Shown here: piece after piece, positions 1 to 64,000 of the stretch
Numbering within the stretch: the stretch's first letter is position 1
Layout: every line of letters begins with the position of its first letter
Assembly (NCBI GenBank): GCA_051294375.1
Contig: CM119267.1
Location: 15,602,105 to 15,666,104 of the forward strand
Length of the DNA: 64,000 nt
From: Paraspadella gotoi
Taxonomy: Eukaryota > Animalia > Chaetognatha
Direction: 5' to 3'
Notes under the pieces: model-generated
What the model saw: the letters and a program-made list of their open reading frames with translations, nothing else
Database searches by the model: none
What the model was told of the DNA's origin: nothing
Position numbers and translations under genes: made by a program

Positions 1-483
1 ATATTGACTCGTATGCGGAGGGGCCGAGATAGGAACGACACGGCTTTGGCTCCGTGGAATGTACAAAGACTGGTCTCTAACAGTGTTGTACTCCTTGGAA
101 GAAGCCAAACGTTTACGGAAATCGGGGTCTCGACCACATCTGTCCCATTGGATTAAATGGTCCGAGTAGTGAGGCTGGGACCCTTGACGGTACGACTGAG
201 GATCATGCCTGGAGGGTTCTTGGCGGTATGGTGGGGCTTTGGAACGGTGGGTCAGTGAAGACTCTCGACGAAGATGAGAATCTGAACGGTAAGAGCTAGC
301 CTCTGGACGGTACGCCTGAGGCGAATGGTAGGAACGTGGGTCCGACTGGTAGTTTCTGGGCGAACGCTGTCTGTGTATGGAGGTGCGATCTTCGTAGTGA
401 CCGCGCTTCGACGAAGCACGATGATCGTACGGCGGAAAACGCATCGGATCTTCCGACCGGGAATCAAAATGAGAACGTTTCAT
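1..483 (-). CDS. 5' part of an uncharacterised Arg/Ser/His/Tyr-rich low-complexity protein; open to the window edge
   Basis: Manual translation from ATG at 483 gives 161 codons with no stop (MKRSHFDSRSEDPMRFPPYDHRASSKRGHYEDR...PPHTSQY). AAAAATG start context; pyrimidine tract + AG at 509-510. Absent from the ORF track because it has no stop in the window. Confidence 0.7.
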   Translation of the reverse strand, partial: MKRSHFDSRSEDPMRFPPYDHRASSKRGHYEDRTSIHRQRSPRNYQSDPRSYHSPQAYRPEASSYRSDSHLRRESSLTHRSKAPPYRQEPSRHDPQSYRQGSQPHYSDHLIQWDRCGRDPDFRKRLASSKEYNTVRDQSLYIPRSQSRVVPISAPPHTSQY

Positions 484-627
484 TTTTTATGCCAGTCACC
501 AATATATACTAACAAAATAGAAAAAATTTGGAGAAATATAAAACATTAATCTTTGTATGTATTTAACATTAGTGACTAGATGATCAAAAAAAATAAACGT
601 TGAAAAACCCGAAAAGCGCTAAGAAAA

Positions 628-2726
628 TTAATTCTTCCACTTTATGTTGGGGTTTTTCAGCAGCAGATCTGCATGGATCGCGTTCTCCGGTTTCAGTTTT
701 CTCGCGTAGTCAATGAGGCCGAGCCTGTCCCGTTCCGTGGCGAAGGCGTCGACGGCGGCTAAATGACACCCGATTTTTATCGCCGTCGCCAATCGATCAC
801 CAACGTCATTAACTTCTAACAGGTAGGAGGCAACCATTCGTGACTCGGCACCCTTCAAAGAATATTATCTGGGTATTGATTATTTGATTACAAGGTAAAA
901 ACTAACTTTCTCATTCTAACCTGCTTCGACAAAATGGAGGCAACCGTTTTAAAATCCAAATCGACCTTGCGTTTCTCCTTGCCGAAAAAAGACTTTGTCT
1001 TAAGTAGTTTGTCCACTTCCGTCCAGCGCTTTAGCCGTGCGTGCGCTCGCAGCGCTACCCAAGCGTGTTGTTTCTGAGAGAGGCCGAAAGTCTTCCGCAG
1101 GAACTCAGGGCTGCCGAAGCAGCTGACCGGCTCTCCGTAATGGTAAGTGACGCAGTAGTTGAGTGACGTGAGCAGTGGGAGATCGATGAGGCTTGATGGT
1201 CGGGGAATGCGGGCAAATATTTCCAATTCTGGTGGAAGATTAGGTTCGGGTAAAGGCGGCGAAGATTGTTGCTCAGCCCGGAGTCGCAGCAACGTCTCTT
1301 TGGCCTTGGCGGCGACCTCCGCGTCTGACTGATCGATCGGCTGTTGAACTTCGAGGAGCTGGATTTGTTGCTGAATCAAAGCGGCGTCTTTGGCGAGGAA
1401 GGGGTCGGAAAGATAATGTGCTTGGAGGCAAGACTTTAGAGCACGGACTTTTTGTTGAGGATTCTTCATTTTCGTTGCTTGACCGAACTTTAAGATGGCA
1501 GCTTCCTCGTTGAAGCCGAACATACCGAGGGTCTCGATCAAATCGGATGTTCGAGAAGTTTGCCTCAAGTACTGTCAATAAATAAAAATAAACGTTCTCA
1601 ATTGGGCATTCCCAATAATTTTCTCATTTTCTCTTCGTACCTGCAAATAATGATCTCTCGCCGCGGGACGGGATTGAATCTCGGCCAAAAACAAATTGGT
1701 TTTGACAGTTTTATGAAAGAAAACGACGGCGGCGGTAAGAGCGTCCCCGTCGCCGCAATCGACGGCGGCGTCCAGCAAGGCCAGTTTTTCGTTCAAAGAT
1801 TTGTAGGTCTCAAGGGTATAGACCTGGAATAAGGAATTTGAAAATACGTACTACAGTAAAAAAAAAAAAATCAACAATCTTGCCTGCCCAGTTAACATGC
1901 GCTTGACCGTTTCCTCGACTGGAAGAGACGTCCAACGCGAAGATTCAGCCGCCGCCAATTTGCGTTTGTAAGAATTGAGATCCGACTTTTAAAAAAAATT
2001 AAAGGAGGGAAAAATCAAATTTCACGGAAATGTTATCTGTCGAATTCATTGCCATTTGGTTACCTACCTGCAACTTGGCTCGTTCGGTGGCGTCTCCCAG
2101 CTTTGATTTTGATATATTTTTGGTAGGCTTATCTATAAAGTCTTCCGGTTCTTCCTCCTTTAGTATGGCGCCGGCCAAAGTTTTGGCCAGTTCTTTCATC
2201 TCCTTTTCCTCCTCATATTTTCCTGATCGCCCCAACGAAGAAGTCTTACTGAGAAAAAAAAAAAGGGATTAATTTTCATCGTTTTCGCATGTTTAAAACG
2301 AGATAAACTTGTCTTACTGTTCTGGTTTCTTCTTTTTCTGTTTATCCGAAATCGGATAGCGGTACCGGGCACTCTGCGCGCTTAAAGCGCTCGAAGATAC
2401 CAATTCTCCCGACCAATTTACGACCTCTAAAAAAAATTGTGGTTTGAAAACTAAAAAATAATTCAAAGCATTTTTTTCCTACCGACATCATCATTATCCC
2501 CTTCCGGACCAACGGCGTCGTCTTCTTCGAACAAGTTTTTCCATTTGTTCGAACTAAACCAGAATTCGTCAGTTTCGTCATCGTCGTCGAACAACGGCTT
2601 TTTCATTTCCGGAAATAAAACAATCGGCTCTTCATCGCCAAATAACCGCTTTTCCATTTCCGGAGATAAAATCACCTCTTCGTCTTCGTCATCGAAAAGC
2701 TGATTGCGTCTATCCGCAAATGACAT
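628..2726 (-). CDS. VIPAS39: VPS33B-interacting protein / SPE-39 (VIPAS39, VPS16B), 7 exons
   Basis: Spliced product matches recalled VIPAS39 motifs: YTLETYKSLNEKLALLDAAV..DGDALTAAVVF, PRPSSLIDLPLLTSLNYCVTYHY, FGSPEFLRKTF, and C-terminal IKWKN*. Intron 1824-1883 is GC-AG; the others are GT-AG. Confidence 0.92.
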
Positions 2727-2930
2727 TTTCACTGCAAGTGAACGCTTGATTAAGAGAAAAAAATCTGAAAAATTAAAATTTGGGAATAATACTAATCGTC
2801 GCACATCATCGGAAGTCATCGTACTCGGAACCCGGAATGCGATAATAGGAATATTTCTGGATTCTTAGAGTAGAGAGGATATAAGTTTTAAACTGACTAG
2901 AGTAGGCACTGAGAAGCAATTCACTGAATT

Positions 2931-5900
2931 TTACAGCCGCCTGATCACATTGTTAACGTCCTCAGATCGAAAGTCAGCCCTGAGACCCATTACAACCTTA
3001 ATTTCATGCTTGGACCACCAGCCCCAGGATCCCAAAGCAGCTCCGCCACCTCCCCCCACAATTCCTCGATCTCCGAAGGGATCTCAAGATTGAGGATAGA
3101 CGCCATCTGAGTTAATTTTGTAAACTTGTCCCTGATAGTCCAGCTGGTCGTCGACGAAAGGTATGCCATAAGGCTGCGTAGTTCCTTTCAAATTGAAGGC
3201 CGCCCAGTCGATTGAAGGTCGATTTGGCTATAGCCTTCTCTAAGCGCGCCACGATTTCCGCCGTCAACTGGGCCACCAGCCCGTCGTAGTTGTTGGCTGT
3301 GAGGGCGTCTTTGAAACTAGTCAATAGAGAGTCGAGGCAGACGATAAGCGCCTGCACCCAAGGGTCGTTTGCTTCGTAATTTGCAAACTCTTCTTCGGAA
3401 ATGTCGTGACTGATGGCGGCGAAGTTGTCGACAAAGGGTTTGATTCGAGGTTTGAGCACATTGGCGCGAAGTTGGGCAAGACCTAGGTCAATCAGTTCCT
3501 GGAATCTTTTGGAGACGAGGACAAGATCGGAGATGCCCGATTCGACTTTGGCCAGAGATTGAGGACGCCAGTCACGCGATGAAGCTGTTCGGCGACACTC
3601 GTCCTCGAACGTCTTGCAAAGCGTCTGTACGTATTCCGAGGAGACTTCCGCGTTGTTCAACGAACTGAGGAACAATGCTTTGTCCCTTTCCGAATCCTTG
3701 GCGCTTTGAATTTTGCCCTACGGTGATCGCAAAAACATGAAGATTAGATTAACTCATTAAGTGTTTTTTTTAAACCGCTGAAGCAACTTTTTTACCTGTT
3801 GAAAAGACGACTGCATCAAGCTGTACGCTTGGTTGAAGTCGAGACTTCCCCAGGCCGCGAAACCGGCAGCGTTACTCAATCGGGTCTTTAAGATATCGTG
3901 ATACTCGGAATCGAGAATGGCACTGGTGTGGTTCAACATGGCGCAAGTAACATCCGCGGATCCCGAGGAGAGGGCGCGTCGAAGACATTTTTTGATAATA
4001 AAGAAAACGTCATCGACCTGACAGGTAAAAAAAGTTGTAAAGTTAAAACAAAATAAAAAAATTAAATCCCAAACTTTAAAACGCACCATAGAAGAAGTAG
4101 CTTGTCCGTGCTCTTCATCAATGCTATCAAGAGATTCGGCTTTGGCCACTGAAATACGCATGAAATATTCTTCCATGAGTACATAATGTCCCATTACCTA
4201 AAATAAAAACATTCATAAAAACAATTCGAAAACATTCTTTTTTTAATTAATTAACAGTAATACAACCTAAAATCATTAAAACTATAATGACCCAAGTTAC
4301 CCAACCCTCTATTATTTGAAACAACCTCCTGCATGGTCCGACATAATTCGCTGTTGGAGATTATATCATCCTTGAGAGAGGCCAACTGCCGATCTTGCTC
4401 GTCATCCTCAAAGGATTCTACGTCGGACTGGAGGCGGACTTGAAGAAACCTCCAATACACTTCCGTTCGCGTGTTCAGTAAGATCACTTCACTGAGGAGC
4501 AGATCCAGTTCCTTCGGATCGATACCGTTTTCTAAAAATGTATTTAAAATTATTTACAATGAAACGCCGTTTTTTCGTACCTAGAATCGGTTCCGCACAA
4601 ACTGTGTACTCAATCAAATTTGATAAAATTTGGCATGAAGGTAGACACTGGCTATACAAATGGAACTATCGAGGGGATTTTTGATATTCAACCCCAGAGA
4701 GGAGATACAGGGCCCCGGGATTGTAGCCCTCGGGGACGAAAAAAGCCAAATTTTTTTTTTTAATTTACACGAATTGATAATTAATAAAAAAACATTTTAT
4801 ACATGTAAAATTGATATTTTTGTTAATTTGACGTTTTTTGAAGATGCATGGTTCATCATTTTACTTCAAATTTTCTCATTGTTTATTCCAAATCTAGCTA
4901 TGAACCGCTGATGTTCTATGGACATAAAAATTAAGGTTAACTAAGTTTGTTGGTGACCGATGATGGAAAGAAAAATTGTCGCGGTTAAAAAGTATTTCAA
5001 CATGAATTAATTTATTCAATAAGAAATATACAAAATATAAATAAACATTTTGCATTATTTGGTATGTAAGAGATAACATTGCTTAGAAATAAACTAAATG
5101 AGATTGAGATTTCAATCATCTCATTTGCATATAGTAGTAAATCATTTTAAGTCCAATTGATTTTTGTACTGTAATATTTTAGGCAATATATTTGGATTTT
5201 GATATTACTTTTCTAAATATTGTTTATAGTTTATATTTGGATTCAGTGGATATTTTGTCATGAATTTGATAGATATAGTTATGGTCATTAATGATTGAGA
5301 GTTTATCTCTGTCGCTGGGACGCGTTTTCATAACACATAAATTACTGTTATTATTCAAGAGGTGAAAATGCAATGGTCAGCTTGGATCAAGGGAAGTACT
5401 CTCATGTTAGTAGTCGCACGATACTCTGAAGTCCTTGCTCAATGTATTTAAGTGTTGAATAGTTGTATTAAATAAACATAATAGTTATAATAATAAAAGA
5501 TAAATTAATGTTTCTATTTGTATTTAAGTTATTTAGCTAATTGTAATAAAATCTCAGGTAAACTAGAAGAGGCAGCGCGGCACTAGATCACTGAAGATAT
5601 AAGTAACAAATAATATTTAATTCATAGCCTGAGTCCCAACTCCTATAGTGGTTGGCATCGGGTTGTGGAAAGATAACGATCCTCAGGGAAGCCCGCGCAT
5701 TATATTTAATATTTTAGCTCTAAAAATATAAATATTTTATATTATTTTTTATTCTATTTGCGGCGGCAACACTATCAGAGTCTCATCTTGTTGACAATGC
5801 CATTTCATACCGTTCTCGCCGGTTTATGACAGCAAAGTTCCATGGAGAAATGGGAGAGGCTTGAGTTTTTGCAAAGCTTCAACTCAACTGAAGTGTCAAT

Positions 5901-8900
5901 TCTATTTCATCATTGAGGTAAACTTTGTCATTTCGTGCTGTTCTCATACAGCCATTGACAGCAAATTCTCTTGGGAGAAGGTAGTGGGCAGCCTGGTTTT
6001 TGCAGCTTCATACCACAAAATGGAGTGTCAAATAACTTTGTACAGCAATTCTTTTTTTCAAGTTCTCTATTCATTCCAGACCCAGGCAGCATAGACTGTT
6101 TCAGGCCCAAAAACTAAGATCAGCTTTTGCGGCTCAACAAGCTTTTAATTATACCTGGCATTTGGGTTTGAGAAACACATCGTCATTTAGGAATTCTAAC
6201 AGGATCTCCTTTCCGGTGTCAGGGGACACCAAAACTTCCACAATGGCCAACCCACTTCAACAATACGTCACACCCGCCGGTGTCCTACTCTGCGTCTCTC
6301 ACACCTCTAATCTCGCTACAAAAAGCTCGTCAAAACTGCTTCAAGACTTCATTTCTACAAAATTCGTCGGTGGGTCCCTGTTCACTTCCTGTGCTGAACT
6401 CTGTGGGGGAAGATCAGAGGTCAAAAAAAAACTTATGAGAATTCATACCACTGCTTTTGTGTCTTCTTTTCTGCTGAAATTTATTATTTATTTACAAGTC
6501 AATGACTAAGGCTAACTTATTCTGTTACACTTGCAATGTATTTGCTTAAATTCACAACATTTGTATTTTCCTCAGATTCCGAGTCCTTTTGATCCAAGCT
6601 CAAATAAAAACTTTGTGGGACATAAGCGCCTGTCCAACCTCTTGACTTCCTTCACACCTCTCAACCTATCTTGGTGCTCTTCTGGTACTCACCTTGTCAA
6701 GCTTCTTTGCAAGGCGATCGCCCACATGGTTTTGAAGCTACATCCCCCAAGTGGAACTGTACGCAAGTTGCTGCCATCCGATCCCAAGGGCGCATCAATT
6801 CATAAACTGCTGAGTACTCAAATGTGTTTGCAGATCTAACTCTTTGGATTGCGTGGACTTTTGGCGCCGCTTCTTATAGTAGAAATAAATAACATCTTAA
6901 GCCACATTAATATTGGCCATTTTGGACACAATTGCAAAATTTACTTTAAATGTAACTCTTTAAACAGCCTATATTTGGCACATGTTCAGCGTCTCCAATC
7001 AAGCCCACATCTCATTAATTACTGATTTTTTATATTTTCTCATCGATATACTTCATTACATCTTAGCATACCACCAGCCCCTTTTTCAAATCCGTTCCTA
7101 ATCTCAAAATTTTTCTATTTTCAACTTATTCATGTCGCTTTCAACTAGTTTCCACCAGACGTTACTTCAAGCAATCACTCCATGCTAATTTCAATTTTAA
7201 TCACCGCATGTTCATATTTCAAGATTCTTCCATTCCATTCCATTTCACCTGCGTTTTGGCATTCAAATTTCAATTGTATTTCTCAGTCAATAAGTGGAAA
7301 TAGTCGTCTGGAATATCTTTACCAGCTGGCAAATAATAGACAATCTACCATGAATACAGCAAATCCTTTATAACATAGAGCTCTCTGAAGTCAAGACGAT
7401 TGCCCACAGGAAAGCACTTCTTTCACCTACAGCTCAATGAGAGTTTGCGTGCAATCAACTCCAAACAAGTAAGTCAAATTTTGACAACATCTATATTTTA
7501 TTATAAATTTAGTTATGGTTAATCATTATTTTTTTTTTTGCCTGTCCTTTATGGGACCTTATGGGTAGCGTAATTATAGGTTTATGATAATTGTTATTTT
7601 TTTTCTGCCCGCCTTTTTGGCAACTAATTGTTGCTCCGTGAAGTGGGGTTCTTATTTGGGCGATAGCCGTACTGGCGACCTGAGGTGCTGCACCGATCAC
7701 TGGGCATAAACCTTTTGTGCTTGCTGATGTTCGCTATTTATCACATAATTAACCGTTTGATTCCATTTTCTTACTCGCAATCGATCATGAATCCATTGGA
7801 ATAAATAAATATAGAAACCTTTCTGCTTATGGGCGAGAACAGCTAAGATAAGAAACTTGTTTGTCAAATATACTCCGAAGCTGTAGTTGTGGCGCACTTC
7901 CAGATGAAGCTACCAATGAAATTATAACAAATGCTTATCTCAAATACGGCTTCCAACGAAACTGGAAGATTTGGCTTTAAAATCTATGAAAGCTCTGAAA
8001 ACAGAAACATATTGGCCTGCCTATAAAGATTGAGCTCAAACAAAAACTTTCAGACCCCTGCAAAAGAACAAAGATTTCAAAGACAATATGGGAATTCTTT
8101 AAATGGGATTCAAGAGATCACTGTTACATGTCTTTGAAAACCAGTCATGCACAAAACTCAAGATCTTCATCCGCTTGTAGCTCAATCAATGAACTCTTCA
8201 ACCAGGCAAATTCACAAAGATTCATTGGCTGGTTCTTCCACCTCTTATATCTAAAGCTTTGTTGATGCAGGAATACCCCCAAGACTTATGATATAACAAA
8301 AAGCGCGTGAACGAGCTGAAAAGTTCAAACTATTACTCAATAAAGATGATAAATCCAATGCTGACAGCAACCTGCTGGATTAAACAACAAGTAACGGCCT
8401 CCACTGCATGGAGCAATGGCAGAACCCAATGGTTGAACTCTTGCCTGTAAAATTTCTCAAGTTGACCATGACTCACAAACAGATGATAGAACTCAGCAAG
8501 AAACCAATGAAACATAAAAGAAATGCTGGAAAGAACAATGAAGATGGAAAGAGAAAGGGAAGAAGAAATTATCACTGTTCAGCAATCTGGAAGATCAAAT
8601 TACGAACACATAGATAAATCACAAATCAACGATTTTATGATTATAAACCCCAAAGATGAACGTTTCAAACATGATCACTCTCAAGATCAGCCCTTGGAAT
8701 ATGATAAAGCTATCAAAAGCCGGCAGGAAGGATATCACGATATGATGACAGCGCTGTGCAAAAGATTCTATTTTGAATACCAAAAAGGCCGTACTATCCT
8801 CAACAAGACTCTTTTAACTTACAGATTTCCACACAAAGATGAATACAGAAAGAAGACACTATTATGGATGAAGTCTTGATTCAGATGAATAAAACATAAA

Positions 8901-11900
8901 ATGGCTGTCAAATATCGAGGACGTTATCATTCCCATAGTGCCGCAGGGAATTATTTTATCTTTCTCACCTTTTTATATATATTATTATATATTTAGAAAT
9001 ATTTATTTATGTATTTATTATATATCTTTATATGTGTAATATTGGAGTTTAGTCTCAAGATGAATATATTTGCCTTGGTGTTTGTGGTCAGCATACTTAA
9101 TCTTATTTTGAACGCCTGTGAATAATTTGGAGTTTGTCTCATGAATATCCTTTATTTGCCTTGGTGTTTGTGTTCAGCATACACTCTTATTGTGGACGGC
9201 GAGTGAACATAATTGGGAAAAGCTATTTATATTATTTGCTTCTGGACGAATTTTCCATTGATGTACCAAGATCGTTATGTCAACAACTGATCATCCTACT
9301 TCCATATCTAACTCAATCTGCATAACGAATGGAGGTACGATCCACAGTTTTAGGTAACTACTTTTGCAACATTTTGTAGAATTTTATAATAGACTTTTGA
9401 ATAACTTTTTACGCAATATCTTAGTCTCTGATTTTGCGAACCATGAATGGGGTAATTTGGGCAAAAAGAGGACGTTTTGTTTTTTTGAATGGTTGTGAAC
9501 GCAATGTAGAGATACATTCTTAGAATAATACTAATGAAGATTGAGATTTCTCAATCTCATTTGCATATAGTAGTAAGTCATTTTAAAGTGCCAATTGATT
9601 TTTTGTACTGTAAGATATTTTTTAGCATATATTTGGATTTTATATTTACTTTTCTAATTTGTTTAGTAGTTTAATTGATTTCATGGATAATTTTTGTCAA
9701 ATGATTTTGATAGATTAGTTATGTCATTAATGATTGAGGTTTATCTCTGTCTGGCTGACCTTTTTCATAAGACATAATAGCTTTATAATTCAATGAGGTG
9801 AAATCAATTGGTCAGGCTTGGATCAAGGGAATGTACTCTCATGGTTAGAGTCCATCATGCTTCTGAAGTCTTGCTCAATGTTTAAAGGTGTGAATTAGTT
9901 GTATTAAAAATAAACCAATAATTAAAAAATAAATAATAAAAGGATTAAATTGATTGGGGGGTTCTTTCTAATTTTGTGTATTTAGTTATTTAGGGCTATG
10001 TAAATAAATCTCAGGTAACTAGAAAAGGCAGCGCGAGGCACTATCACTGAAAGATATAAGTAACAAATAATATTTTAATTCAATAACCTGAGTCCCACTC
10101 ATATAGGTATACCCTTTGTCGGCATCGACTACTGCTTGCATTAGTCTGGGTATGCTCTTATACGGCAAATTGAGGCATGACAGCGAAATGTTTTTCAACA
10201 TCTTACGCAATTTTTTTAAGTCTAATGTTAATATATGCGCATCTTTCCTCTTTTTGGAGAGCTATAATAACACTTTTTTGAACCTGAAAAAGGTGCAAGG
10301 CGTTTAGCATTGCCATTAAAAAAAATTAAATACAATTTTTTTCACTATTTTTTATTTAAAGTAACAATATTTTTTTGACTGTAACTGTCAAGAAAAAACT
10401 ACTGAAAAAAATTCAATGTAAATTTAGAAAATATTCTGATTTTTTTTAAATCAAATAAGTTTTTGAATAAATATCTGTTATAAAAATGTGATTTACTTTT
10501 TTTCTAGATAGTATTTGAAAAATTCAAAAATATTTTTGAGCATTTTTCTCCCTTGTGGGTGACCCCCCTGGGGGCCCATATCTCGGCTCAGGGGTCAAAT
10601 ATTAAAATTCGCTTCGACAGTTCTATTTGCATTCCCCTAATGATCATATATACAAAATTTAAACATACAGATCTGCTCAAAAAAAGTTTAAACTTTGAAC
10701 CCCCTACTATCTCGCTTGTCTGTCGTACTATTAATTAAAAATAGGGTTCATTTGAAAGCCAAGACAAATATCTTTCATCCGAGCCCATGACGAGGTTTTT
10801 AGGCTAAATATTATAGAAGCTGTGCTAAAATTAAAAAAAGGATCCAAATTTTGTCTTAAAATTTTTTTTATCCATCTTTGTTTTTTGTTTTTTTGTGTTT
10901 TTTTACCATGGAAACTTCAAAACAGCTGATCCCCAAAAGAAAAGCTGCAATAGTTGAGCTTTGGAAGGGGGTTTGTCAAGATATAAGATCGCCAGAGTTT
11001 TATTTCCCTCTAACAACCATCTGCAGAGTTGTTAACAAATTTGAAGCAACTGGACACTTAGGACGAGCTGTTGGAAGCAGGCGGCCTCGCATGTCCACGG
11101 AGAGTGAGAATGATAACGTGGATAGTCTCGCAATTCAAGATTGTAAGGCTTCTGCAAGCCAGTTGAGAAAAAAATGGAGATAAGAGGAAGTGTTGCCAGT
11201 CGTTCAATAGTGAATGGGCGGGTTTTCATCGAGGATTGAGCTCTTAGATACAAAACTAAAACCACTCAAAAATGTCATGAGGAAAATGGGATCGAGGTGC
11301 TCAAAGTTGGCCCAGAAACTTACCTGACTGCAACTTCATCGAAAATGATTGGTCAAGGATGAAATGGGATATTTTGCAGTATAACGCCATGACAATCAAC
11401 AAAATCTAAAAAATTTTAAAATGAATTTGGGGAGTTGAACCCTTCATATTTGTGCAGCCCCTAAAACTCTCTCCCTCATTGCAGGGAGGTGGTGTAGAGA
11501 TATGTCCCCCTTTTTCCCCCATTTATTTGTTTGCCTTTTGTTATTACCGTTTCTGCCGATAGATGCCTCTTTTCTTTTCTTTAGGAGATTACACTCCTCT
11601 TTTCTTTTCTTACCAGATATACTAGGCCCATGTAGATTCTTAGGACTTTTCCGCCCGTCACCAAACTGCCTTTTTCGAGGCTACTAGGACGCCCTCATGT
11701 CACCATCCGTCACCTTTGATCACGGCCATAGAGCCCACGACGAGACCACACTCCAAGAGACTTGTGGACGCACTTGTGGTCAGACTTTAGGCTCCGTCAC
11801 AGACTCGTGGACGGACTCGTGGCCCATTACATTCGGCCACACGTGGGTGACGATAGCCTCGCCGATTACTCCTTCTTCACGGCGAGCCGACGTTTTCGGC

Positions 11901-16653: not shown

Positions 16654-16822
16654 GGTTTGATTTACGTAGGTTTTTTGTGGATAAATTTTGATTAACAAAC
16701 CCTTTTAAATTTCATCTAAATCCAGATGCAAAAAAGAAAATACTTATTTAACGCTCTTATTTCTTAAAATTTGAAATACAACTCGAAAATGTGGGCTTGA
16801 TGACGCCAAGGACGCAACGAAT

Positions 16823-30171: not shown

Positions 30172-30201
30172 GACCACCGCACAGGGAAGTTATTCTCCTT
30201 G

Positions 30202-30240: not shown

Positions 30241-30262
30241 ATAAAAGAAGAATACAAATGAG

Positions 30263-45503: not shown

Positions 45504-47087
<1,584 letters not shown>

Positions 47088-52422: not shown

Positions 52423-53864
52423 TCAAAGATCTTCCTTGACACGTACTACTTTAGGTTCGTTGAGCCAAGTTCCATTTTTATCAATGTCCAAATCTGCCCT
52501 AAATCTGATTTCTTTTGGAGCATTGGGATTGCGTCGGACGTGTTTTGGAAAACCCTGCGGGTAGCCGAGTGTTAAAGCAGGTAGAAAATTAGAAATGGGC
52601 AGCAAAACGTTTTTCTCAATCGGGTTAGATCAATGAGCTTACCCAAAATTCTAAAGATTTTCCAAAAATCTTTCTGTGACGAAATGCGTAACCCGAGAAC
52701 GTAGATACGCAGTTACCAATCCAATGAGACGCCATTTCCATCACGCAAAGGTCAACCTTAAAATCGGAATCCGGCCCAGGAGCGTAAATCTTTAAATCCT
52801 TAAACTTTTTCTTAAATTCCCTGACCATTGGGTCATTGTCAGTAGAAATGTAGATGGACCTAATTTTGTGCTTTTTCACTGCGGCTGCCACTTGCTTAAT
52901 GATCGTATTTTTTGACGGGAAACAAATTTCCTAGAAAAAAGTGAAAATTCTAAGTGGTTTAATTTTTATGAAATAAACTAAATTGCAATCGAGATGAACA
53001 TTACGAAAAAAAAAATTTCACCTGCGTCAAGAATCCCTTCTCATTCTCGAAGCCCAAACACTGGGCGGAGCCGAAAAAATTTCTTCCTTCTTCCACGTGA
53101 TTGCAGGCGCGTTTGAAGTCGTCTCCATTCCTCAAGTGAATTGCCAAGAAGGGATTTTCCATCTCCTTCCGAATGAGTATCTCGGATCGCTTCCAAACAT
53201 CGTCCGACCAGAGCAAATACTTTTGATTTTCGATGTCGGCCTCTTTGGGTGGAAAGTCGCCCGGCGTGCCAGTAAAGGCCAGGACAGGAAATTTTTCCGG
53301 TGGATATTCTTGGTGCCACCGTTCTATCATGTGCGTGTCGTTGACATTACAGTAATAAAGTCCTTTTTCGCCGTAGAAGGAGGAGGAATCGAAATCGATG
53401 CCGAAGTGATCCCAATATGGTCCGAAAGGGTTCCCGTCCTTTGCGTTGCAGCCCTTATCGACAGAGCCGTGACGTGGCCCGTAGCATATAGAAATTCGCT
53501 CGCCTTTGGGAAACACGTCGTCGCCAACAGTGCCCATAAAAAAGTCCATGGTTATCGAGCGGTGAAACATGGTGGCGGCTCTGTAGCGGAAATAATCTTC
53601 GTAGGGTATCTGGCGAGATCCAGCTTGGTATGGAATGTATTCAATCCAGTGCGGGAGGATAAGGGTTCGATCGAGAGCCTTGGCGAAACTCATGGCACCC
53701 AAAAACTGGGCTACTTGATTTCCGAAACGGCCCATGCAAGGGCAAAACATGATGTATCCCTTGGGGTCAACCTCAAACCCCAAGTTCTGTGTTGGCTTCT
53801 TTTTGTGCGCCATCGCAGAATGAAGGAAGAGCACGAGGACGAATAAACGTTTAATTGGATTCAT
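52423..53864 (-). CDS. POFUT1: GDP-fucose protein O-fucosyltransferase 1, 3 exons
   Basis: Signal peptide; DPKGYIMFCPCMGRFGNQ, CNAKDGNPFGPYWDHF, AIHLRNGDDF..AC, IGNCVSTFS; C-terminal ER-retention-like KEDL*. Confidence 0.96.
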
Positions 53865-54030: not shown

Positions 54031-57000
54031 CTAATTTTTTTTCCACACCAATTTCGTCGGAAAGTTAAGAATTTTTTCCGCCATTTCTGTTGACATGTCG
54101 GGGCGAATGCTCTGTCCACGGTCACGATTGTCTGGATGAGAGAACTGACACTCACGCTTAGCGCATGCATTTCCATAACGACACGGCATAGTTTCCGTCG
54201 ACTCTGGTCCAGGCGTAGCCAGGAAAACACTTCGGGCAGGTGGTGGTGTCGGTGCAAACTTCTTGATTGGTGGTCGGGCAAAAAGGTTTCCTCTCTTACT
54301 GGCGTGCGTATAAGGACAGGACAGTTTAGTGCACTGAGCGTCGTACTTGCAGTTGGGATGAATGAATAGACACTTGTCGCCGAAACGACATCGAGGAAAC
54401 GCTTTGCAAGGTGTAGTGGGGTGTTGAAAGGGGCAACTCTCACCAGCGCGGCACGCCGGCCAGAATCGGCATCTTTCGCCGCTAGAATGGGGAACCTCGG
54501 GCCCATCACTCGTTGGTGGCAGCGCTCGGCGAATTGTGGACGCGCTTTTTCTAATCCCCGCCAAAGCGTGAGTTATATTCGCGAGGGACGCGGTACTTTC
54601 GACGGTAGAATTGGAAGAAGCGCCAGCGCCGATAGTGGCACGCGGATTCTGCCAAGAGAATTGACTCGGTGCCGTTCTTTGTGGCGCTACCGATGCTGTG
54701 GCTTTGGCTTGAAACTTAAAGTCTAATGGTGGAGGTGCGTTCGAAGGTGAAAACTTCGGCACGCTATCGGACGAATTGTTGGACGTAGATGAGAAGCGAA
54801 CGGGGAGAGAGATATTCGATGTTGTTTTGGAAGAATTACGGTTAATCATCGAGATATCCGGCGAGACAGAGGGCTTTGACGTCGGCGCCGAAGACTCGCC
54901 CTCGGTGGCGAAGGAAATTTTTAAGGAATCGTGCGGCGGGCAATCCTCAACGTCTTCTTCGTTAATATAAAGAAAAACGTCGTCGTCGGCCGAACCGTCG
55001 AGGGTCACTTCCTCGTCGTAGAGGCGCCGTTTGAGACCCTCGTGATCATTAGAATTTGCTCTCGTTTTCTTATCAGCAAATTTGGAGGCGTCGACGCCGT
55101 CGAGAGTCACAATAAACTTCGGCGATTCCCTTTGACTGGAGGAAGCACCGCATTGTTCTCGCGGTGACGATATAAGAGCCCCATGTGTAGAAGACGGTTG
55201 GACTGGCGGAGGTGCTGACTTGCGAGGCGGAGAACCATCTGAAAGGCCATGTGGAGGCGGTGGTCGCTTTAACCTGGGCTTTACACGTTCCCTTTTTTCA
55301 GAACGAATCTTGGCTTCCGCCTTAGTTTTTGATTTGACTTCCTCGTTGTCGACCTTCAAAGCAGCTGCCACGATATCGCGCCAATTCGGTTCCGTTTGGC
55401 CATTTTCCGAAGACGATTTTTGAAATTTTCCACTTTCTTCCTCTTTATTCTCTTCAATTTCTTCTCCTTTTATTCCTTTCTCATGAGGCAAAACGATAGG
55501 TTCCTCTGTTCCCGGCGGCGCCGGCTCAATATCAATAGAAGACTGCCTAGGTTTTTCCGCCATTTCCACCATCTCCGAAGACTCTTTTCCATATAACATT
55601 TCTTCCTCGCTGTCGTAATCGGCGGGTTTATCCTCAACGTTTGCTTGAAAACGTCGTTCATCGACCTGGCCACAGTTGTTCTCGTTCGACTGCTCGATGG
55701 AATCGCCGCTGCGGCTGCGGCTTCTGGATTCTCGCTCTACAGGCGTTGGAGATTTCGGACGAACGTTTCTTATGCTTTGAATCCTATGAACTTCCTGACG
55801 AAACTGAGAGCGAGATTCGTCCTCGCTTTCCATGGGATGATCTGAGACACGAGATCCGGCGCGAAGTCTATTGTCGACGAAGGGTTGGTCGTAATCGTCG
55901 TCGATGTAAGATTCCGGGGAAGCGGGAATTGACGGCCCGTCCTTTTTCGTCACTGCCGTTTCACCGCCGGAACCGTCGTCGGAAAAATCTTCGGCGAGAG
56001 CATAATCGTCTACGGCGACGCTAGAGGATTCGGAAGCCTTATGTACCCTGTTCTTAATGTGCACCTTAAAACTCTGCAAGTGCGCCCTCGTCACCTTGAC
56101 AGTTTTTCCGTTATCCTTTTTTAATACAATGGCGTCATCGGATTCGACGGACTCACGCCTAGAACTTCCTCCGCCACTTCGATGACGACGGCGGTCTTTG
56201 GAGCGAGAATCTTCGTTCGAGTCTCTTTTTCGGGATTCCCGAGAGCGATGACTGGGCGAGGGAGTCGTCTGAGTCCGGGGATGTGAGACGTCGCTCGATT
56301 TATCCCGACGCAGTGCACCGTCTCCCGCGAACGCATACCTCGCTTCTGAGGCGGGTAGCTGCCTCGTCTCATTGGGAATCTCTTGACGCGATCTCGCGCT
56401 ATGTTCGCGTCGATCTGAATACATTCTGGACTCGCGCCTGATTTCTGGTGAAATGGCGCGCGAATCGGAATGAAAATCGCTTTTAGAATCACGCGGTAGC
56501 GAGGGTCTAATACTTTGTGCGTCGTGACGACCGTCGTTGTGAGCAAGATCCATAAGAGCTTCGTCCGCACGAGATCGCTCCGCGGATGTAATGTTAGGGC
56601 GGTGGCATCGATGGGCAGCCGATTCTAGACGAGAATGGTTATGAGATCGGTCATCTTCACGGTCATCTTCACGCGAGCGGCGGGATTTTTCAACGTAAGA
56701 ATTCGATCCTGGGATGGACATTATTTCGTCCGAACGCATGCCGCCAAGGGTAAACCCGCACTGACGATTGGACGAGCTTTTACTGATCTTTTCCTTGGAC
56801 ATCGTCCTAGAAGACGACGACAACGACTTTGATATTTGAGAATGCGTCGAGACGCTCTTTGATTGGACCAGCGACTTTCCTTTTTTGTCGGTGACCTTGA
56901 CAATGCTACCGATGATCCTTCCTTGCTCATCGACATCACGTTCCTTGAGCACGCCTCCGGTAGACACGCGACTTTTAGTGACTTTTGCCTTATCGTCACG

Positions 57001-57630
57001 CGTCTGGCGCTTGGTCGAAGACGTCGACGCTGTCTTTAACAACTTCTTGGGCATTTCGATTTTTTCGTTGGAATCGCGCTTTTTACGGAGAGCGTCGTCC
57101 AGCGCCTGTCGTGCTTGCACTAGTGACGGAGGTTCTTTAAGGGATAACTCTGACTTTTTCTTGACGGCTTCCTTGGCAACGCCACCTTTTGGAGGGGCAT
57201 CGTCGTTGAGACCCTCAATTACATCGTCCGTGCGGATGGAGATGAAATCGCCAAGAGGAAGTTGCTGCGCAGAAGACGGATCTAAATTTTTTTGTTCCGT
57301 CTTTTTGTCTAGTGTCAATAGCACTTTAGTCGAGTGGCTGCTCTGCCCGGTCTTCTCCGCTTTTTGCTGAGCCTTCAATTGTCGCTCTAACGTTTCGGCC
57401 GTTATGTTCTGCAATTTGTTTAAAAGTTGCTGGAGCCAGTCGGTGAAGGCAGCTGCGGCGGCGCCGAGGAAGAGGCTGAGATCGCCCTGCATCTGATCTC
57501 TCGTTTTCTTATTGGCCACCATGACCATGATATAGTCCGGAAGCTCCTCATCAACGTACGCCCCTAGTTCCTCCAATTTTGTCTTAATGGCGGCACGAAT
57601 CTTTTTGCTGATCTCAGTACCAATCTCCAT
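54031..57630 (-). CDS. ZC3H14: Zinc finger CCCH domain protein 14 (Nab2 orthologue, poly(A)-binding), intronless
   Basis: PWI-like MEIGTEISKKIRAAIKTKLEELGAYVDEELPDYIMVMVANKK; SPKFIVTLDGV; four C-terminal CCCH fingers (CRFWPAC, CKAFPRC, CKYDAQC, CRYGNAC). Confidence 0.95.
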   Translation of the reverse strand: MEIGTEISKKIRAAIKTKLEELGAYVDEELPDYIMVMVANKKTRDQMQGDLSLFLGAAAAAFTDWLQQLLNKLQNITAETLERQLKAQQKAEKTGQSSHSTKVLLTLDKKTEQKNLDPSSAQQLPLGDFISIRTDDVIEGLNDDAPPKGGVAKEAVKKKSELSLKEPPSLVQARQALDDALRKKRDSNEKIEMPKKLLKTASTSSTKRQTRDDKAKVTKSRVSTGGVLKERDVDEQGRIIGSIVKVTDKKGKSLVQSKSVSTHSQISKSLSSSSRTMSKEKISKSSSNRQCGFTLGGMRSDEIMSIPGSNSYVEKSRRSREDDREDDRSHNHSRLESAAHRCHRPNITSAERSRADEALMDLAHNDGRHDAQSIRPSLPRDSKSDFHSDSRAISPEIRRESRMYSDRREHSARSRQEIPNETRQLPASEARYAFAGDGALRRDKSSDVSHPRTQTTPSPSHRSRESRKRDSNEDSRSKDRRRHRSGGGSSRRESVESDDAIVLKKDNGKTVKVTRAHLQSFKVHIKNRVHKASESSSVAVDDYALAEDFSDDGSGGETAVTKKDGPSIPASPESYIDDDYDQPFVDNRLRAGSRVSDHPMESEDESRSQFRQEVHRIQSIRNVRPKSPTPVERESRSRSRSGDSIEQSNENNCGQVDERRFQANVEDKPADYDSEEEMLYGKESSEMVEMAEKPRQSSIDIEPAPPGTEEPIVLPHEKGIKGEEIEENKEEESGKFQKSSSENGQTEPNWRDIVAAALKVDNEEVKSKTKAEAKIRSEKRERVKPRLKRPPPPHGLSDGSPPRKSAPPPVQPSSTHGALISSPREQCGASSSQRESPKFIVTLDGVDASKFADKKTRANSNDHEGLKRRLYDEEVTLDGSADDDVFLYINEEDVEDCPPHDSLKISFATEGESSAPTSKPSVSPDISMINRNSSKTTSNISLPVRFSSTSNNSSDSVPKFSPSNAPPPLDFKFQAKATASVAPQRTAPSQFSWQNPRATIGAGASSNSTVESTASLANITHALAGIRKSASTIRRALPPTSDGPEVPHSSGERCRFWPACRAGESCPFQHPTTPCKAFPRCRFGDKCLFIHPNCKYDAQCTKLSCPYTHASKRGNLFARPPIKKFAPTPPPARSVFLATPGPESTETMPCRYGNACAKRECQFSHPDNRDRGQSIRPDMSTEMAEKILNFPTKLVWKKN

Positions 57631-57703: not shown

Positions 57704-59360
57704 TTACGTGTCAGAATCGCTGCAGTCGTACAAGTCCGAAACGAGAGAACTAGCAGTTTGCAAAATTTCAATTTTAGTACTAGAAAAAAAATTATCGACA
57801 CTGTGATCAGAAGCATCGCTGTCCTCATGATGACCACTGATAACAGCTGCCTCCGCTGCACCCGAGCAAGACGGCGACGACTTAAAGGGATTGTGAAGAA
57901 TAACGTTTTGTATATCAGCCCGATCTGCCTCTTTCGGCTCGGAAAGTTTGGTGGTTACTAAGGAAGAATGATAAGAACATTCGTTGGCGTCGATAACGTT
58001 GACTCGTTCTAAATCTGTCTTCACGCTCGTCTCTTCATCAATTTTTTTCTTAACAATCTTTCCGAATCCCGATAGAGCAATGGAGAAAGAAGACTGTAAC
58101 GTGCCGGAGCCTCCAAAGACGCCAGCTTTCGGTCTTTTGGCCGGCGTTTTAGAGGTGGATTCGTCGGGAACGAGGACGGACGATTCTTCGATCGCTTTTC
58201 GCTTCTTGTTTTGACGCTCGTCGAATGTTTCGAGGCTTTTGTATTTAATGAGAGAAGCCAGCCTCTTGTCTTCGTCGGATTCTTCTACGAGGACCAAGTC
58301 TGAGCATGACATTGACAAATTTTATTTTTAATTAAAATTATAATTTTTTCATTAGAGAAAACAGAAAAAAAAAACTACCTTTAGGAAGCGACGATTTTTC
58401 GAGAAGAGCCTCTCCAATCTTTTTCTTTTCCAAAATTTCCTTTTTTTCAAAACGAAATTTTTTTCGCGTCATCTGATTTAAAGCAAAATCATCCAACCAC
58501 TCCTCGCGACTTTCCGCCAACTCGGCCAAACTGGGCATTGACTTCTTCGCCTATAAATATATACTTTATATATACTATTAAAATATAAAACGTTAATTCT
58601 TCTCATAATTAAATTGTACTCACCTTCTCAACGTCTTGTTTTCCGTGCTCCAGCTTAAACATCGGGTCTGACTCGAGCTTTCGGTGCTTCTTCTTCTCCT
58701 CGGGAGCAACCTGTTCGTTTTCATCCGGGTTCCATCGTTGTTCCTTCCGCTTGAGCCCGGATATTATGACGTACTCGAAATTTGCAGGGTCCGTCTGCAT
58801 TTCAAAGTGATTGTCGCAGAGGTGACACTTCATTCTGGAAAAAAAGCTCTTGTTGTAATCATTGCTGGTATCACAGCTGACGTAGACACCGTCCCGGTCA
58901 TTCCTTATTTACAGCGGCACAGTCAATTAGACTTAAAATATCTGTAACCCGATTAATCACAGAAAACCTCTTCGTTCATTCAATTAAGCAGAAATACAAT
59001 AGTTTAATTGCAAGTTTAAAAAATACCTAAACTTATAAATCGGAGTGGTGTAATACATTCCCGTTTTCGTTTTTTCTGCGTTGTACCGAACGCCCATGCC
59101 AATGTGATTTCCACATCCAAGGCACCTAAACAAGCTTAGATTTATTACTGACGCAACAAGTGAAAAACTCCTTCGCAAATTTATTTAAATACGTACCAGA
59201 CATTATACGGCATTTCAAATCTGATGATCAGGATTCCTCGATCAAGTTTTCGCGCTCTTTCCCGCAAGGCGTGCACGCCATGGTATCCGTTCAATGACCC
59301 GTGCTTCTTGGGGTCGAAATCGGGGGGATAATACTTATTGGTTCCTTTTCGTTCTCCCAT
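57704..59360 (-). CDS. YJU2B: Splicing factor CCDC130/YJU2B (CWC16 family), 5 exons
   Basis: MGERKGTNKYYPPDFDPKKHGSLNGYHGVHALRERARKL..IRFEMPYNVWCLGCGNHIGMGVRYNAEK..FRMKCHLC..TDPAN..DPMFKLEH. Confidence 0.95.
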
Positions 59361-60123
59361 GTTTTATGCCAAAGTTATTGCCAATGATAAAATCCTCTAG
59401 AATATGATAAAAACATTTCTTACAGAACACATTAAAGCTTAAGGGGAAGACGGTGGGTGGCATTGCGTTCAGAAGAAAAAGTTCTATCATTGTAAATAAT
59501 CATTAAAAAGTTTACCGAATAGAGATCAATGCTGAATAATACCTAAATAAGTTAGATTAGGTAACGACTGTAATTTTCGCAACGTCGCTCACCACAAGAG
59601 AAATTAATCAAATTTAATGGATAAATGAATTAGAAAAGGGGGAAAAACGCTTAAAATCATGAAAATGTCGAAAAAATTAGGAAATTTTAGAAGCGATCAC
59701 AAAAACTACAAACTACATAAAATCTAATAAGGCACCAATTGTGAAACCACCAATCACAAAAGGAAAACGTCATACAATATATAAATATATATTCGACAGT
59801 TAATTCTAGAAAAAAAGAGTTGACCAGTAAGTCCAGTATCTGAATTCTTCATGACTAGAAGACGTCATATAACATCAAATAAAACCGTTGGTTTAGTAAC
59901 ACTTTTTTATTCTTTCTGCAATAAAAATATTATGACTTGTATGTTTTTAAAAGAGCTTACTTTTTTCAAAAATCTGATCATTTTTAACTTAAGACCTAAC
60001 TTTAAATTGCTACATTCCATTCACTGTTTAATATTTTTTTGACTTTCAACTGGTAGGACTGACAACAACAATAAATACCCATTTAAAAAATCAAATCTAA
60101 CGAGTCTATACCCAAAATTACCA

Positions 60124-63100
60124 TTACCGAGCTGCGTTTCCCTTAGAAACTTGTCGCATAACTAAGTCAGATCCCCGTAACTTTTTCTCGACCTTCATGG
60201 CTTCGTCGCACTCTTGCCGACCCATGAACTCTACTTCTACCACGGCGACTCCGGATTCGCGACGAATACGAATTCCGCCGCCGACGAGATGCCGGCCGAC
60301 GAAAAAATCCTCGACTTCGGCGGACGTGATGTCTTCCGGCGCAGATTCGATTCTTATGCAACGGAGTTCATCCGTTTCGGAAGAGTCGACATGAGCGGCG
60401 CGGCTATCGGAAGATTCTGTGTTGGTCGAAGTAGTCGTCGTAATTGTAAAAGTAATCGCATCGTCAGAAAGAGTGGTAGAGGTAATCGAACTCGAAATGT
60501 CGGGATTGAGGATTGAGGACGTGGAGGTCGAGTTCGAAGGAAGTTTCGAAGGAATGGATCGATTTTCGGGGTTAACGACGGCCACTGGCCTCTTGGGTTC
60601 CACACCCTCTAACAAAGGCCGAACTTCGACAATATTTTTAGAGGTCTTGGAAAATGAGTTAGAAAGGGCCGTAGCCCCGGAACGACCCTTTCTGATATCG
60701 AGGATACGCTTATTAACTTCATTTACGGGAACGTCCTCGACGCTCACGCGAAACATGTCGTTCAGCAGACGACCCTCAAAGGTGAAAGCCTTTCGGTAAA
60801 CTTCATGGTCGGACAATTCGGCGAAGGCCCTTCCGTCGGTGGTAGAGCCAGGAGGAAAGACGATCCGAACCTGGGATGGTTTGATCCCAATTTGGGCGAA
60901 GAACTGATTAAGGTGTTGTTGAGCGACGCGAGAGTCCAAGCCGGAAATCATCACCGCGTATTTTCCGTCGCTCCTCGGGCCGACGGGCGTTTTAGGATTG
61001 TGAGGTATGGAGACCACTCTGACCTCATCTTCATCGTCCCCTTCGTCATCGTTATGTCTCCACCTGTCCTTCTCTCGGCTCCCGCTGGATCTGCCGGAAC
61101 GTGCGTTGCTTCTTCGTTCATAAGTAATTTTTCTGTCACGCCGTTCCCGAGAATTTCTGTCGTCACGATAGCGATCGGATTTGAATTTTGGGGAACGAGA
61201 CCTTCTTTCCCTCTTCGGGCTTTTGTCATGAGAACGACGAACGCGAACAAATCTCTCGTTTCTCCGATCGTCTTTATCCCGAACCGAAATTTTTTGTTGT
61301 CTCGTGTCCTGAAAGTCGTACGCAAAGCTTCTCAATTCCAAGGGGAATCCCTCTAAGTATTCCAAGTACCACTTATCGTCGGCGTGTAAGTCCGATTGTA
61401 GCGGTCGCTTAATAGGGACAAAATTACGGTTCTGAACCGACGTCAAGGCATCTTCGTACTGGTAACGGACGATTCGAAAAATTTCCACGACTTTTTTATT
61501 CATCATCTTTCGATCAGAGGCCAGAATTACGGCCAAATCAGATTTTCCCAGGAGTTCGGCGATAAATAGGCTAGACTGGTTCCCCGGTGGTGGGATCAAT
61601 CGATGAATTTCTAAAGGTAGAACGGGGCGAAAAAACTCGAGCAAATCAGCGATTTTAGTGTCCTTAGGAGCATTTGCGATGTGAATGAAAAAGTGTTGCA
61701 GGACTGGAGCGGGAGGTCGTTCTAAAATGTAGTTGTTGCCGCGTTCATAAGCCCGTACGCAATCTTCGAACTGCTTCTCCGTAACACGAAAAATTTTGGT
61801 TGCTCCGACGACGATTCTTGATTCTTTGAGTTCGGCCATGCCCTCGTGTAGACGCGGTTGCGACGCAAACTCAACTAAGATTAGTTCATCGGAAAAGTTT
61901 TTTCTCGAATTCAGAAGGTGTATGCCGTCCTTTAAAGGTTCGACGGCGCCGAGGCAACGACGAACCTCTTTAAAATTCATCCTTGGCGCCGGGTCCTGGA
62001 CGACGCAAATCCATCGAAAGTTAGGCGCTTGGTGAACAGGAGGAGATCCCATAATCCCTGGTTTGTCGCTGAAGACTGGACGGTCGGCGAACCTATCAAG
62101 CGTAAAAGGATCGTCGTGGAGAATTCTTTCCGAATCGGGTTCATGCTGAATCTTTTTTCCAAAGCTCCTCCGATCAGCACAGAACATATCCCTTTTATTG
62201 TGCTCAGTTCTAGAACGCTTTTCAAAAAGTTTTCCCAATAATGGAACTTCCGTCGTTGCCTTCGGAAGATCGCTGAAACAAGACGAAAAATCCCCTTCGA
62301 CCTCTGCGGGTCCAAATCCGTTGTTGTACTCGAAAACGGTTGGCGACTTTTTGTTAGGCTCTCGCTTTTCAATAATCTCGGGTGGCCGATTTATTATTGG
62401 ATCCCTCTCACGAGGTTTGGAATAATTTTGTTGTCCTAAGACCACAGGACGATCCACAGGAAAATTCGAATCGAGTCCATCGCGCCGACTTGAAAACTCG
62501 GAACGATTTAATAACGGTGGTGATTGCATTGCATCGCCGAAAGGACGAAATGGAGGTTGGTCGGAAGAAGTAGACGACGTTTCAAATGCCGAAGGCGGAG
62601 GTCTCTCTATCTGCACGTACGGTAGTCGCAAGCCGAAATGCTTCTCCACGTCATCAAACTGTCGCTGCAAAATTCGAAAAACGTGGACCCGTCGGTTGCG
62701 CCACATTGTCCCAGATTTAGCAAGGACAGTTTTCATGTCACCTTCACTCCGTAGCTCCGCGACAAAGTTTCCATTAATTTTGCCTATGAGGCCGAAACAC
62801 GGGAATATTCCACGGGAACCCTGAATCGCGGGTTTCATGAACTCCACGATCCCGTTAAAGTCGGTGTTCCAGTCCATATTGGTCAGGGCCACGAAAAAAC
62901 CGGTACCAACACCGGAACGCGGTTCAGAGTTTTCCGGTGAAGGTGGTCCTGAATAACGCCTGTCTGCAGACAGAGGCGTTGAGCGGCGATCAAATCTGGA
63001 GTTGTCGGTGGGGTCGACGTCGACGCTTAACTTTTGCGGACTCGTGCGAAAAGGTTTCTCAAACAAGACGTCGAACGGGTTTGATCTTTGCGGAGGAAGC

Positions 63101-63959
63101 AAGGAATCTATCGGGAAGGCTGTATTTGAATACCGCGGAATGTTTGGTGCTGGATGCGGATCGGCAGTCGATCGGGCCACGACGGCTTCAGTAGACAGTT
63201 CACTGCAAAATTGCGCTGGGAAAGAATTTGTCGGTATATAAGACCGACAATTTGCTTCCTCGTTACGACCAGAAAATTTTTGAGCATCAGCTTCGGGCGC
63301 AATAGCTTCATGATTGACATCTTTTGTCGGATCCTCCAGTGAAGCGATTGGGGCGGCGGAAATCGACGTTTTGACGGGCGAGACCGGGAGCATTGATTTG
63401 GGAGGTCGGTCGTGGTGCATTCCAAATGGCAAATCGTTCACCAAGTCTTCCTCCTCCTCCTCGATCTCGTTCCAGCTATCTGCGAGAGGTGGAGGCCGTT
63501 CGCTCCAGTCCGCCTCAGTATTTTGGCCCCGAGACTCCTTGGGGAAGAATTTCGAGGAGAAGTTGGTGTTTGAGACGGGCGGCCCGGAGTCATTATTTCG
63601 AGTGAAGGACAAACTCGATGAATATTCCAACGTAGTATTATTGTGTTCGTAATCTAAAAAAATTAAGAAATCAAAACAATAAAATCTTTCTCAATTACTG
63701 AAAGTAACCACCACAATTTATTCTTACGTGGAACGGTCCAATTGGAGAATAACGGTTCGCAAAATTTGCTTGAAGACCCTTCGAATCTCGTATCAGCGCC
63801 GTCGTTGGTTCCTGCGGTAGTGGAGTCAATGACTCTTCCATCGGCCACGACCTTATCGCTATTTGCTAGAGATATTGGAATGAGACGGTTGGCGCTGTCT
63901 TGCGGATGCTCGTTCACCACCGTAGACATACGAGATGATTTTGAAAGTGACGACGTCAC
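60124..63959 (-). CDS. Multi-RRM RNA-binding protein, RBM12/RBM12B-like (about 5 divergent RRMs plus an RS/RD-rich segment); 5' end may lie outside the window
   Basis: Repeated RRM-like units (e.g. YAVMISGLDSRVAQQHLNQFFAQ..GRAFAELSD; CIRIESAPEDITSAEVEDFF..VEVEFM) and SPKRERRSRSPK. The upstream exon from 63959 joins through a C|GTAAG..TAG|AT intron at about 63654-63727. Confidence 0.7.
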
Positions 63960-64000
63960 CTGTTAAGATTAAGAATATTAATGAATTTTATTTTAATGTA

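Follow-up and report, generated by a model that had tools for sequence, protein, structure and literature searches.

A one-strand run of at least 20 genes in a chaetognath genome, probably an array of spliced-leader-resolved operons

Across a 64-kb stretch of contig CM119267.1 of the chaetognath Paraspadella gotoi (GenBank assembly GCA_051294375.1, positions 15,602,105 to 15,666,104 of the forward strand; hereafter the window, with coordinates counted from its first letter), 20 genes lie head to tail on the minus strand. Our exon models were built from a six-frame reading, Pfam searches, and direct reading of the window sequence, and they include no host gene on the plus strand. They bear out an initial annotation that had described at least 20 non-paralogous minus-strand genes: when the 20 proteins were compared all against all with blastp, the single cross match was a weak one between FAU and COG4 (E = 1e-4), which is likely due to chance. 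Coding sequence amounts to 40,051 nucleotides (nt). The 55 introns have a median length of 90 nt and total 19,059 nt, and the spacers, 19 in number, total 4819 nt. With a density of 1.4 introns per kb of coding sequence and no coding introns in six genes, the annotation's further description of the locus as intron-rich was overstated.

Several gene names used here (CABLES, LZIC, PDRG1, VIPAS39, ZC3H14, and CCDC130) are ones that we presume from domain content. In transcription order, the run opens at the high end of the window with gene 1 (60124..63929), which has one intron and a clean model and encodes an RRM-containing protein of 1243 amino acids (RRM_1 weak, E = 0.004, below the cut-off); an acceptor-like AG ahead of it ends at 63960. 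Gene 2 (57704..59360), also a clean model, encodes a CCDC130-like splicing factor of the Saf4/Yju2 family (PF04502), and gene 3 (54031..57630) is a ZC3H14/Nab2-like single coding exon with zf-CCCH_2 and a weak PWI match. Next come a POFUT1-like protein O-fucosyltransferase with the C-terminus KEDL (gene 4, 52423..53864; PF10250), a CABLES-like cyclin-box protein with eight introns and a clean model (gene 5, 48837..52052; Cyclin_N, E = 1e-7), a C2H2 zinc-finger protein (gene 6, 47380..48615; PF00096), an LZIC-like ICAT-domain protein (gene 7, 45504..47030; PF06384), and a UCHL3-like ubiquitin C-terminal hydrolase (gene 8, 44382..45298, with an alternative ATG at 45319; PF01088). Gene 9 (37612..44307) is an open frame for a coiled-coil-like, single-exon protein of 2231 amino acids to which a Pfam search gave no match, and gene 10 (36433..37230) encodes a PEX2-like peroxin (PF04757).

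The second half of the run begins with mitochondrial GUF1/LepA (gene 11, 33363..36291; GTP_EFTU and LepA_C) and the beta-hexosaminidase HEXB (gene 12, 31006..33060; GH20), which shares one spliced contig with the 3' part of GUF1. A PDRG1-like prefoldin-like protein follows (gene 13, 30263..30679; Prefoldin_2 weak, E = 0.002), then propionyl-CoA carboxylase alpha (PCCA; gene 14, 26050..30171; Pfam and homologues), a SPICE1-like centriole protein with a SPICE domain (gene 15, 23204..25743; PF15678), the maestro HEAT repeat protein MROH1, whose third exon is 4.9 kb long (gene 16, 17721..23078; Pfam and homologues), and FAU, in which a ubiquitin-like protein is fused to ribosomal protein S30 (gene 17, 16823..17311; PF04758). 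COG4 (gene 18, 2931..16653; COG4_N, _m, and _C) holds two introns of 2988 and 8034 nt and a frameshifted last exon. Gene 19 (628..2726) is a VIPAS39-like, Vps16_C-related protein whose own Pfam match is weak; four homologues at 64 to 69% carry PF04840. Gene 20 (1..483), an open frame of 161 codons from its ATG that runs off the window, has an Arg/Ser-rich N-terminus and no Pfam match above cut-off, and is the least certain gene of the run.

The models translate cleanly from ATG to stop in 18 cases, the exceptions being gene 20, which leaves the window, and COG4. The COG4 frameshifts (last exon, 2931-3200, minus strand) are likely sequencing errors, because indels also abound in the neighboring intron copy: about 630 nt within the 8-kb intron are present twice (5064-5648 and 9504-10106), at 80% identity and with 50 gaps. 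Over positions 16500-33600 (about 17 kb, with 8 genes and 7 of the 19 spacers) we aligned an RNA assembly, X1, which contains 0.93 of the sequence words of 16500-26400 and was classed as RNA from its splice joints. Among the 15 joints listed, 11 have canonical intron ends; the other four are three short-sided or repeat joints and one 45-nt skip in the MROH1-FAU spacer (17471-17515), where the missing stretch, with its noncanonical ends, is likely an allelic deletion. Since the intron ends of FAU, MROH1, SPICE1, and seven of the eight PCCA introns were taken from these joints, agreement with RNA is no independent check on them. The HEXB model owes nothing to RNA, and its five inner exons total 808 nt, which equals the gap between two pieces of the third X1 record. 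In two further runs, X2 and X3, the matches to 16500-33600 were all short and distant, and neither run was used.

A run of this kind could be an artifact of misassembly or of biased gene calling. The frameshifted COG4 exon and the indel-rich intronic duplicate do point to local errors or decay, and the plus strand is not devoid of frames: 41 stop-to-stop frames reach 100 codons, and over most of their length they are either antisense to coding exons (31) or intronic (10). None of the plus-strand frames scanned, including 9 of the 10 intronic ones, reached a Pfam cut-off; no tRNA or Rfam gene was found in the window. Against an artifact stand the clean models, the lack of any plus-strand host gene, and a separate RNA assembly that follows the DNA collinearly over four gene junctions, at 0 to 1 mismatches per piece. 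We regard an artifact as extremely improbable.

The spacers are a stronger sign than the shared orientation. From stop codon to ATG they measure 763, 73, 166, 370, 221, 349, 205, 74, and 381 nt between genes 1 and 10 and 141, 302, 326, 91, 306, 125, 409, 169, 204, and 144 nt between genes 10 and 20, for a median of 205 nt; three are only 73, 74, and 91 nt long. Eighteen of these values are identical to those first reported, and the seventh is 205 or, as originally given, 184 nt depending on the choice between two in-frame ATGs of gene 8. The orientation odds of 2^-19 that accompanied that list are arithmetically right and apply per position only: at random orientation about 0.02 such runs would be expected per 21,000 genes, or 0.2 if 14% of neighbors were operonic as in P. 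gotoi. Short spacers weigh more than orientation because 2^-19 takes no account of how many windows were read. With gene ends set by RNA, a series of 11 consecutive genes, PEX2 through gene 20, falls within a 250-bp rule, 19 within the 500-bp rule used for Oikopleura, and all 20 within the 1-kb rule used for Macrostomum. Lengths above 400 nt are found in 7 of 55 introns and 2 of 19 spacers, which amounts to no formal length contrast.

The first X1 record (10,441 nt) opens at SPICE1, crosses MROH1 and FAU, and reaches into COG4, lacking the introns but retaining the spacers; the third links HEXB to the 3' part of GUF1 and stops 34 nt short of the PDRG1 ATG. Spliced contigs thus bridge four of the seven spacers examined, and RNA passes through or close to all seven. 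Because contigs are not molecules, this bridging is suggestive only. Contig depth along the run varies from 137 to 266, and such depths do not rank genes.

The direct leader evidence lies at the start of the SPICE1 contig. The first record starts at 25774, the first base past a tttag whose AG occupies 25776-25775 (minus strand), and is preceded there by nine nongenomic letters, TTGTTTAAA in RNA sense, which are absent from the window's minus strand. Of the 26 chaetognath leaders tabulated in PMC2481426 (Table 3), 25 terminate in the same nine letters; the chance of a match for a given 9-mer is about 5e-5. This tail is one of six X1 loose ends listed, the other five being intronic, at repeats. 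The contig of the upstream gene, PCCA, stops at 25820, which is 45 nt ahead of the SPICE1 acceptor. PCCA itself likely also starts with a leader, a conclusion drawn from depth arithmetic, in which the letters themselves are not seen. An aligned contig end at 30201 would give bin 29633-30203 a mean depth of 126.69, in agreement with the 126.7 observed; ends at 30197, 30202, or 30203 predict 125.64, 126.96, and 127.22, which do not fit. A start at 30201, the base directly after an AG (30203-30202, minus strand) and 60 nt past the PDRG1 stop, would leave five unaligned letters ahead of that base. By this arithmetic, neither the short PCCA introns nor the 45-nt gap has contig cover, although rare variants are lost from contigs. 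For the shared nontemplated 5' leader that the initial annotation had proposed to look for, the outcome is therefore direct at SPICE1 and arithmetical at PCCA, with no leader among the rows listed for the five further junctions within 16500-33600.

Acceptor-like sites were scored across all 19 spacers. We built an acceptor weight matrix from the 55 cis acceptors, set the threshold at the tenth percentile of their scores, and accepted sites at most 70 nt before an ATG with no ATG between. Fourteen of the 19 spacers hold a site above threshold (shuffles: mean 7.3, maximum 16), and the mean acceptor score was matched by 2 of 1000 shuffles. The matrix chose both RNA-supported sites, at SPICE1 and PCCA. 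Like introns, the spacers are AT-rich. AATAAA occurs in 8 of the 19 and is not enriched (10 copies in 4819 nt of spacer versus 9 in 4622 nt of intron), nor is TATA (3 versus 8 matches in the same lengths).

One 6-mer, but no 5-mer, remains enriched in the spacers after correction. CTAGTC occurs in 6 of the 19 spacers against 0.36 expected, an extreme reached by no 6-mer in 1000 shuffles; the motif occurs 10 times on the minus strand of the window, with 6 copies in spacers and none in introns. Three spacer copies extend to TCTAGTCA, at 573..580 after gene 19, 2894..2901 after COG4, and 59852..59859 after gene 1 (all minus strand). This is the optimal 8mer site for miR-279/996, whose seed family extends across nonchordate animals (PMC5800810). 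The other spacer copies lie at 37555-37561, 25997-26002, and 45326-45331 (minus strand), the last of which may instead be part of an acceptor. Four copies sit 31 to 51 nt past a stop codon. Judging from these motifs, microRNA control shared by five unrelated members of the array is possible, and the enrichment together with the miR-279-type sites suggests that functional 3' untranslated region (UTR) takes up much of each spacer.

Other features of the locus lie within genes. Repeats and insertions lie in introns, which are up to 8 kb long, and none of any great length lies in a spacer, a pattern that speaks for the operon array discussed below. A dispersed repeat is present in opposite orientations in a COG4 intron (12216-12454) and a gene 5 intron (50940-51136), with 145 nt at 92% and 42 nt at 90% identity. 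A COG4 intron also contains a short plus-strand frame (10860-11183) that lacks a Pfam match and that we take to resemble the N-terminus of a Tc1/mariner transposase. The very long exons at 37612-44307 (6.7 kb) and 17721-22635 (4.9 kb) exceed the other genes in AT content, and they point, by inference, to extensive intron loss in the lineage. GC donors begin 2 of the 55 introns, at 29770-29857 in PCCA, where the joint was seen in RNA, and at 1824-1883.

Twenty unrelated genes in head-to-tail order, together with a leader tail on an inner gene, make an array of spliced-leader-resolved operons likely. The run itself is real, and our overall reading, which we consider probable, is that it is a very long array of such operons, with some internal promoters probable within it. 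Most inner genes are likely fed by read-through from upstream, and a few of the longer spacers possibly hold promoters of their own. To this extent the operon interpretation made at the outset is partly supported, since the leader evidence and the RNA at seven spacers favor leader-resolved operons.

Several observations pull the other way. The direct leader evidence consists of nine letters in one contig from one run, possibly not independent of the source of the window. A two-gene contig does not demonstrate a single transcript, as overlapping ends or trace DNA could bridge, and the RNA evidence spans 7 of the 19 spacers. No spacer acceptor is significant singly (p = 0.08 to 0.69), and five fall below threshold. 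Neither the MROH1 tree nor the PCCA tree confirms a chaetognath placement. Finally, about half of P. gotoi genes are trans-spliced and 18% are operonic, according to the available text of PMC12460157, so that trans-splicing does not by itself imply an operon.

One alternative is a mostly monocistronic arrangement, in which each gene would have a compact promoter in the spacer or in the upstream gene's 3' end and leaders would replace short outrons; the genes would then share an orientation because colliding transcription is avoided or because they are remnants of older, dissolved operons. In P. gotoi, most genes that receive a leader are nonoperonic (PMC12460157, in the same text), bridging contigs prove no shared transcript, and, judged by coding ends alone, just 11 of the 19 spacers are below 250 nt, with no stretch of such spacers joining more than four genes. 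Yet there is little space for such promoters. The RNA end of PCCA lies 45 nt from the SPICE1 acceptor, the PDRG1 stop lies 60 nt from the PCCA acceptor, the three shortest spacers are under 100 nt, and part of the spacer length is itself likely 3' UTR, given the microRNA-type sites just past four stops. Moreover, head-to-head pairs would be expected among independent genes. We judge the monocistronic arrangement quite improbable.

Under the operon array that we favor, RNA polymerase II would read on from each gene into its downstream neighbor, while cis introns are taken out by the spliceosome, as seen in the RNA joints. The upstream mRNA would be cleaved and polyadenylated within the spacer (AATAAA stands in 8 of the 19), and an unpaired AG acceptor 4 to 60 nt before the next ATG would take a capped leader from a separate spliced-leader RNA, a step observed for SPICE1 in its 9-nt tail, probable for PCCA, and predicted for the rest. 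Because there is little room for gene-specific promoters, expression levels may be tuned posttranscriptionally, for example through microRNA sites in short 3' UTRs.

This leader-resolved mechanism is already described for chaetognaths, and the new part is the size of the array. The portions of PMC2481426 available to us report leaders and one two-gene operon in Spadella cephaloptera and note further clustered genes of the same orientation; those of PMC12460157 give nine genes as the longest P. gotoi operon under a 250-bp rule and report no operon-specific SL2-type leader for chaetognaths. The window resembles these operons in its leader 3' end, in housekeeping content that includes a ribosomal protein, and in very short gaps between RNA ends, and differs in having 11 consecutive genes at 250 bp and 20 on one strand. 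Its coding CpG is not depleted (observed/expected ratio, 1.27) and its repeat-rich intron parts are at 0.6 to 0.75, as the methylation pattern described for P. gotoi in the available text of PMC12460157 predicts. MROH1, alone among the genes, has a ratio of 0.73. Taken by themselves, the leader match and this CpG pattern make a chaetognath origin of the sequence very likely.

Homology searches added little on placement. The best MROH1 matches, among those listed, were molluscs and nemerteans at 44%, and a tree of 22 hand-chosen rows of 120 matches plus the window sequence was uninformative, with a long-branch artifact beside a choanoflagellate. In a PCCA tree (40 of 120 matches), the window protein formed a fully supported group with five transcript-sized proteins at 74 to 78%, apart from named rows. 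No named chaetognath appeared among the listed MROH1, PCCA, or gene 19 matches, and no relatives of gene 13 were found in the metagenome contigs searched. A degenerate leader pattern gave at least 119 metagenome matches, which we attribute to chance; four that were near contig ends or leader-like were unlike published leaders.

A one-strand order has a precedent in Spadella. Table S5 of PMC2481426, which omits predictions without a SwissProt match, lists 24 rows over 158 kb of bacterial artificial chromosome (BAC) 35A21. Within that table, every named host gene with an assigned orientation, 14 in number, is on the plus strand, over about 120 kb; the four minus rows are all labeled transposon, five plus rows are transposon-like or unlabeled, and one row has no orientation. 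The words "strand" and "orientation" are absent from the main text of PMC12460157.

The operons reported from other animals are smaller. In the accessible parts of each source, C. elegans operons have 2 to 8 genes and those of Macrostomum up to 9 (PMC8629364), Ciona operons have up to 7 (PMC7986045), and a nine-gene operon is reported in Oikopleura (PMC11067885). The window shares with nematode, tunicate, and flatworm operons the head-to-tail order of unrelated genes, short intercistronic DNA, and unpaired acceptors, but exceeds the sizes just given with 19 (500 bp) or 20 (1 kb) genes. As for nematode SL2 operons, the leader letters seen here number only nine and are common to most chaetognath forms. 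The acceptors are not of the nematode TTTTCAG type and the leader end is different, and we have dropped a nematode origin. A search of literature readable without subscription found no report of an animal operon of about 20 genes or of long one-strand chaetognath clusters.

In kinetoplastids as generally described, cis introns are nearly absent, initiation is confined to strand-switch regions, and every mRNA is trans-spliced. The likeness to the window lies in extended series of unrelated genes on one strand whose mRNAs mature by leader addition; the difference lies in the 55 cis introns here. The window shows at least 20 genes, and kinetoplastid clusters hold "ten to hundreds of genes" in the available text of PMC3376733. 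A strict, kinetoplastid-style version of the locus, the reading of the initial annotation, would be one transcription unit of at least 20 genes, driven by a single promoter past the window's high end and without internal initiation. There is no strand switch within 64 kb, so that the run is cut by the window ends; 18 of the 19 spacers are at most 409 nt; across the eight genes examined, RNA support shows no break longer than one 91-nt spacer; the spacers resemble introns in AT content without TATA enrichment; and the Spadella BAC keeps one strand over about 120 kb. Set against this are the limited RNA coverage of the spacers, the uneven contig depth (for what depths can say of genes), and the 763-nt spacer and six spacers of 302 to 409 nt, which are roomy enough for a compact promoter. 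Internal promoters are also common in nematode operons. We think a single strict unit unlikely. Somewhat less doubtful, and put forward tentatively, is a broader proposal: that chaetognath housekeeping genes lie in kinetoplastid-like one-strand clusters of tens of genes, with one or very few promoters per 60 to 120 kb or more, which a 250-bp cut-off splits in published counts.

Transcription of the run likely yields long shared RNAs that are then cut into individual mRNAs, and the run would then be about twice as large as the animal operons usually reported. Animal operons have been described as a handful of genes; the array of 19 to 20 genes and the Spadella BAC suggest that one phylum may approach the scale of trypanosomes. 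Operon size, promoter number, and gene order in chaetognath genomes would then have to be read differently. The array also bears on how polymerase escapes termination past many poly(A) sites and through introns of 3 to 8 kb. If clusters of tens of genes are indeed the rule, chaetognaths would be the first animals with polycistronic transcription on such a scale, with cis introns and microRNA control kept inside it.

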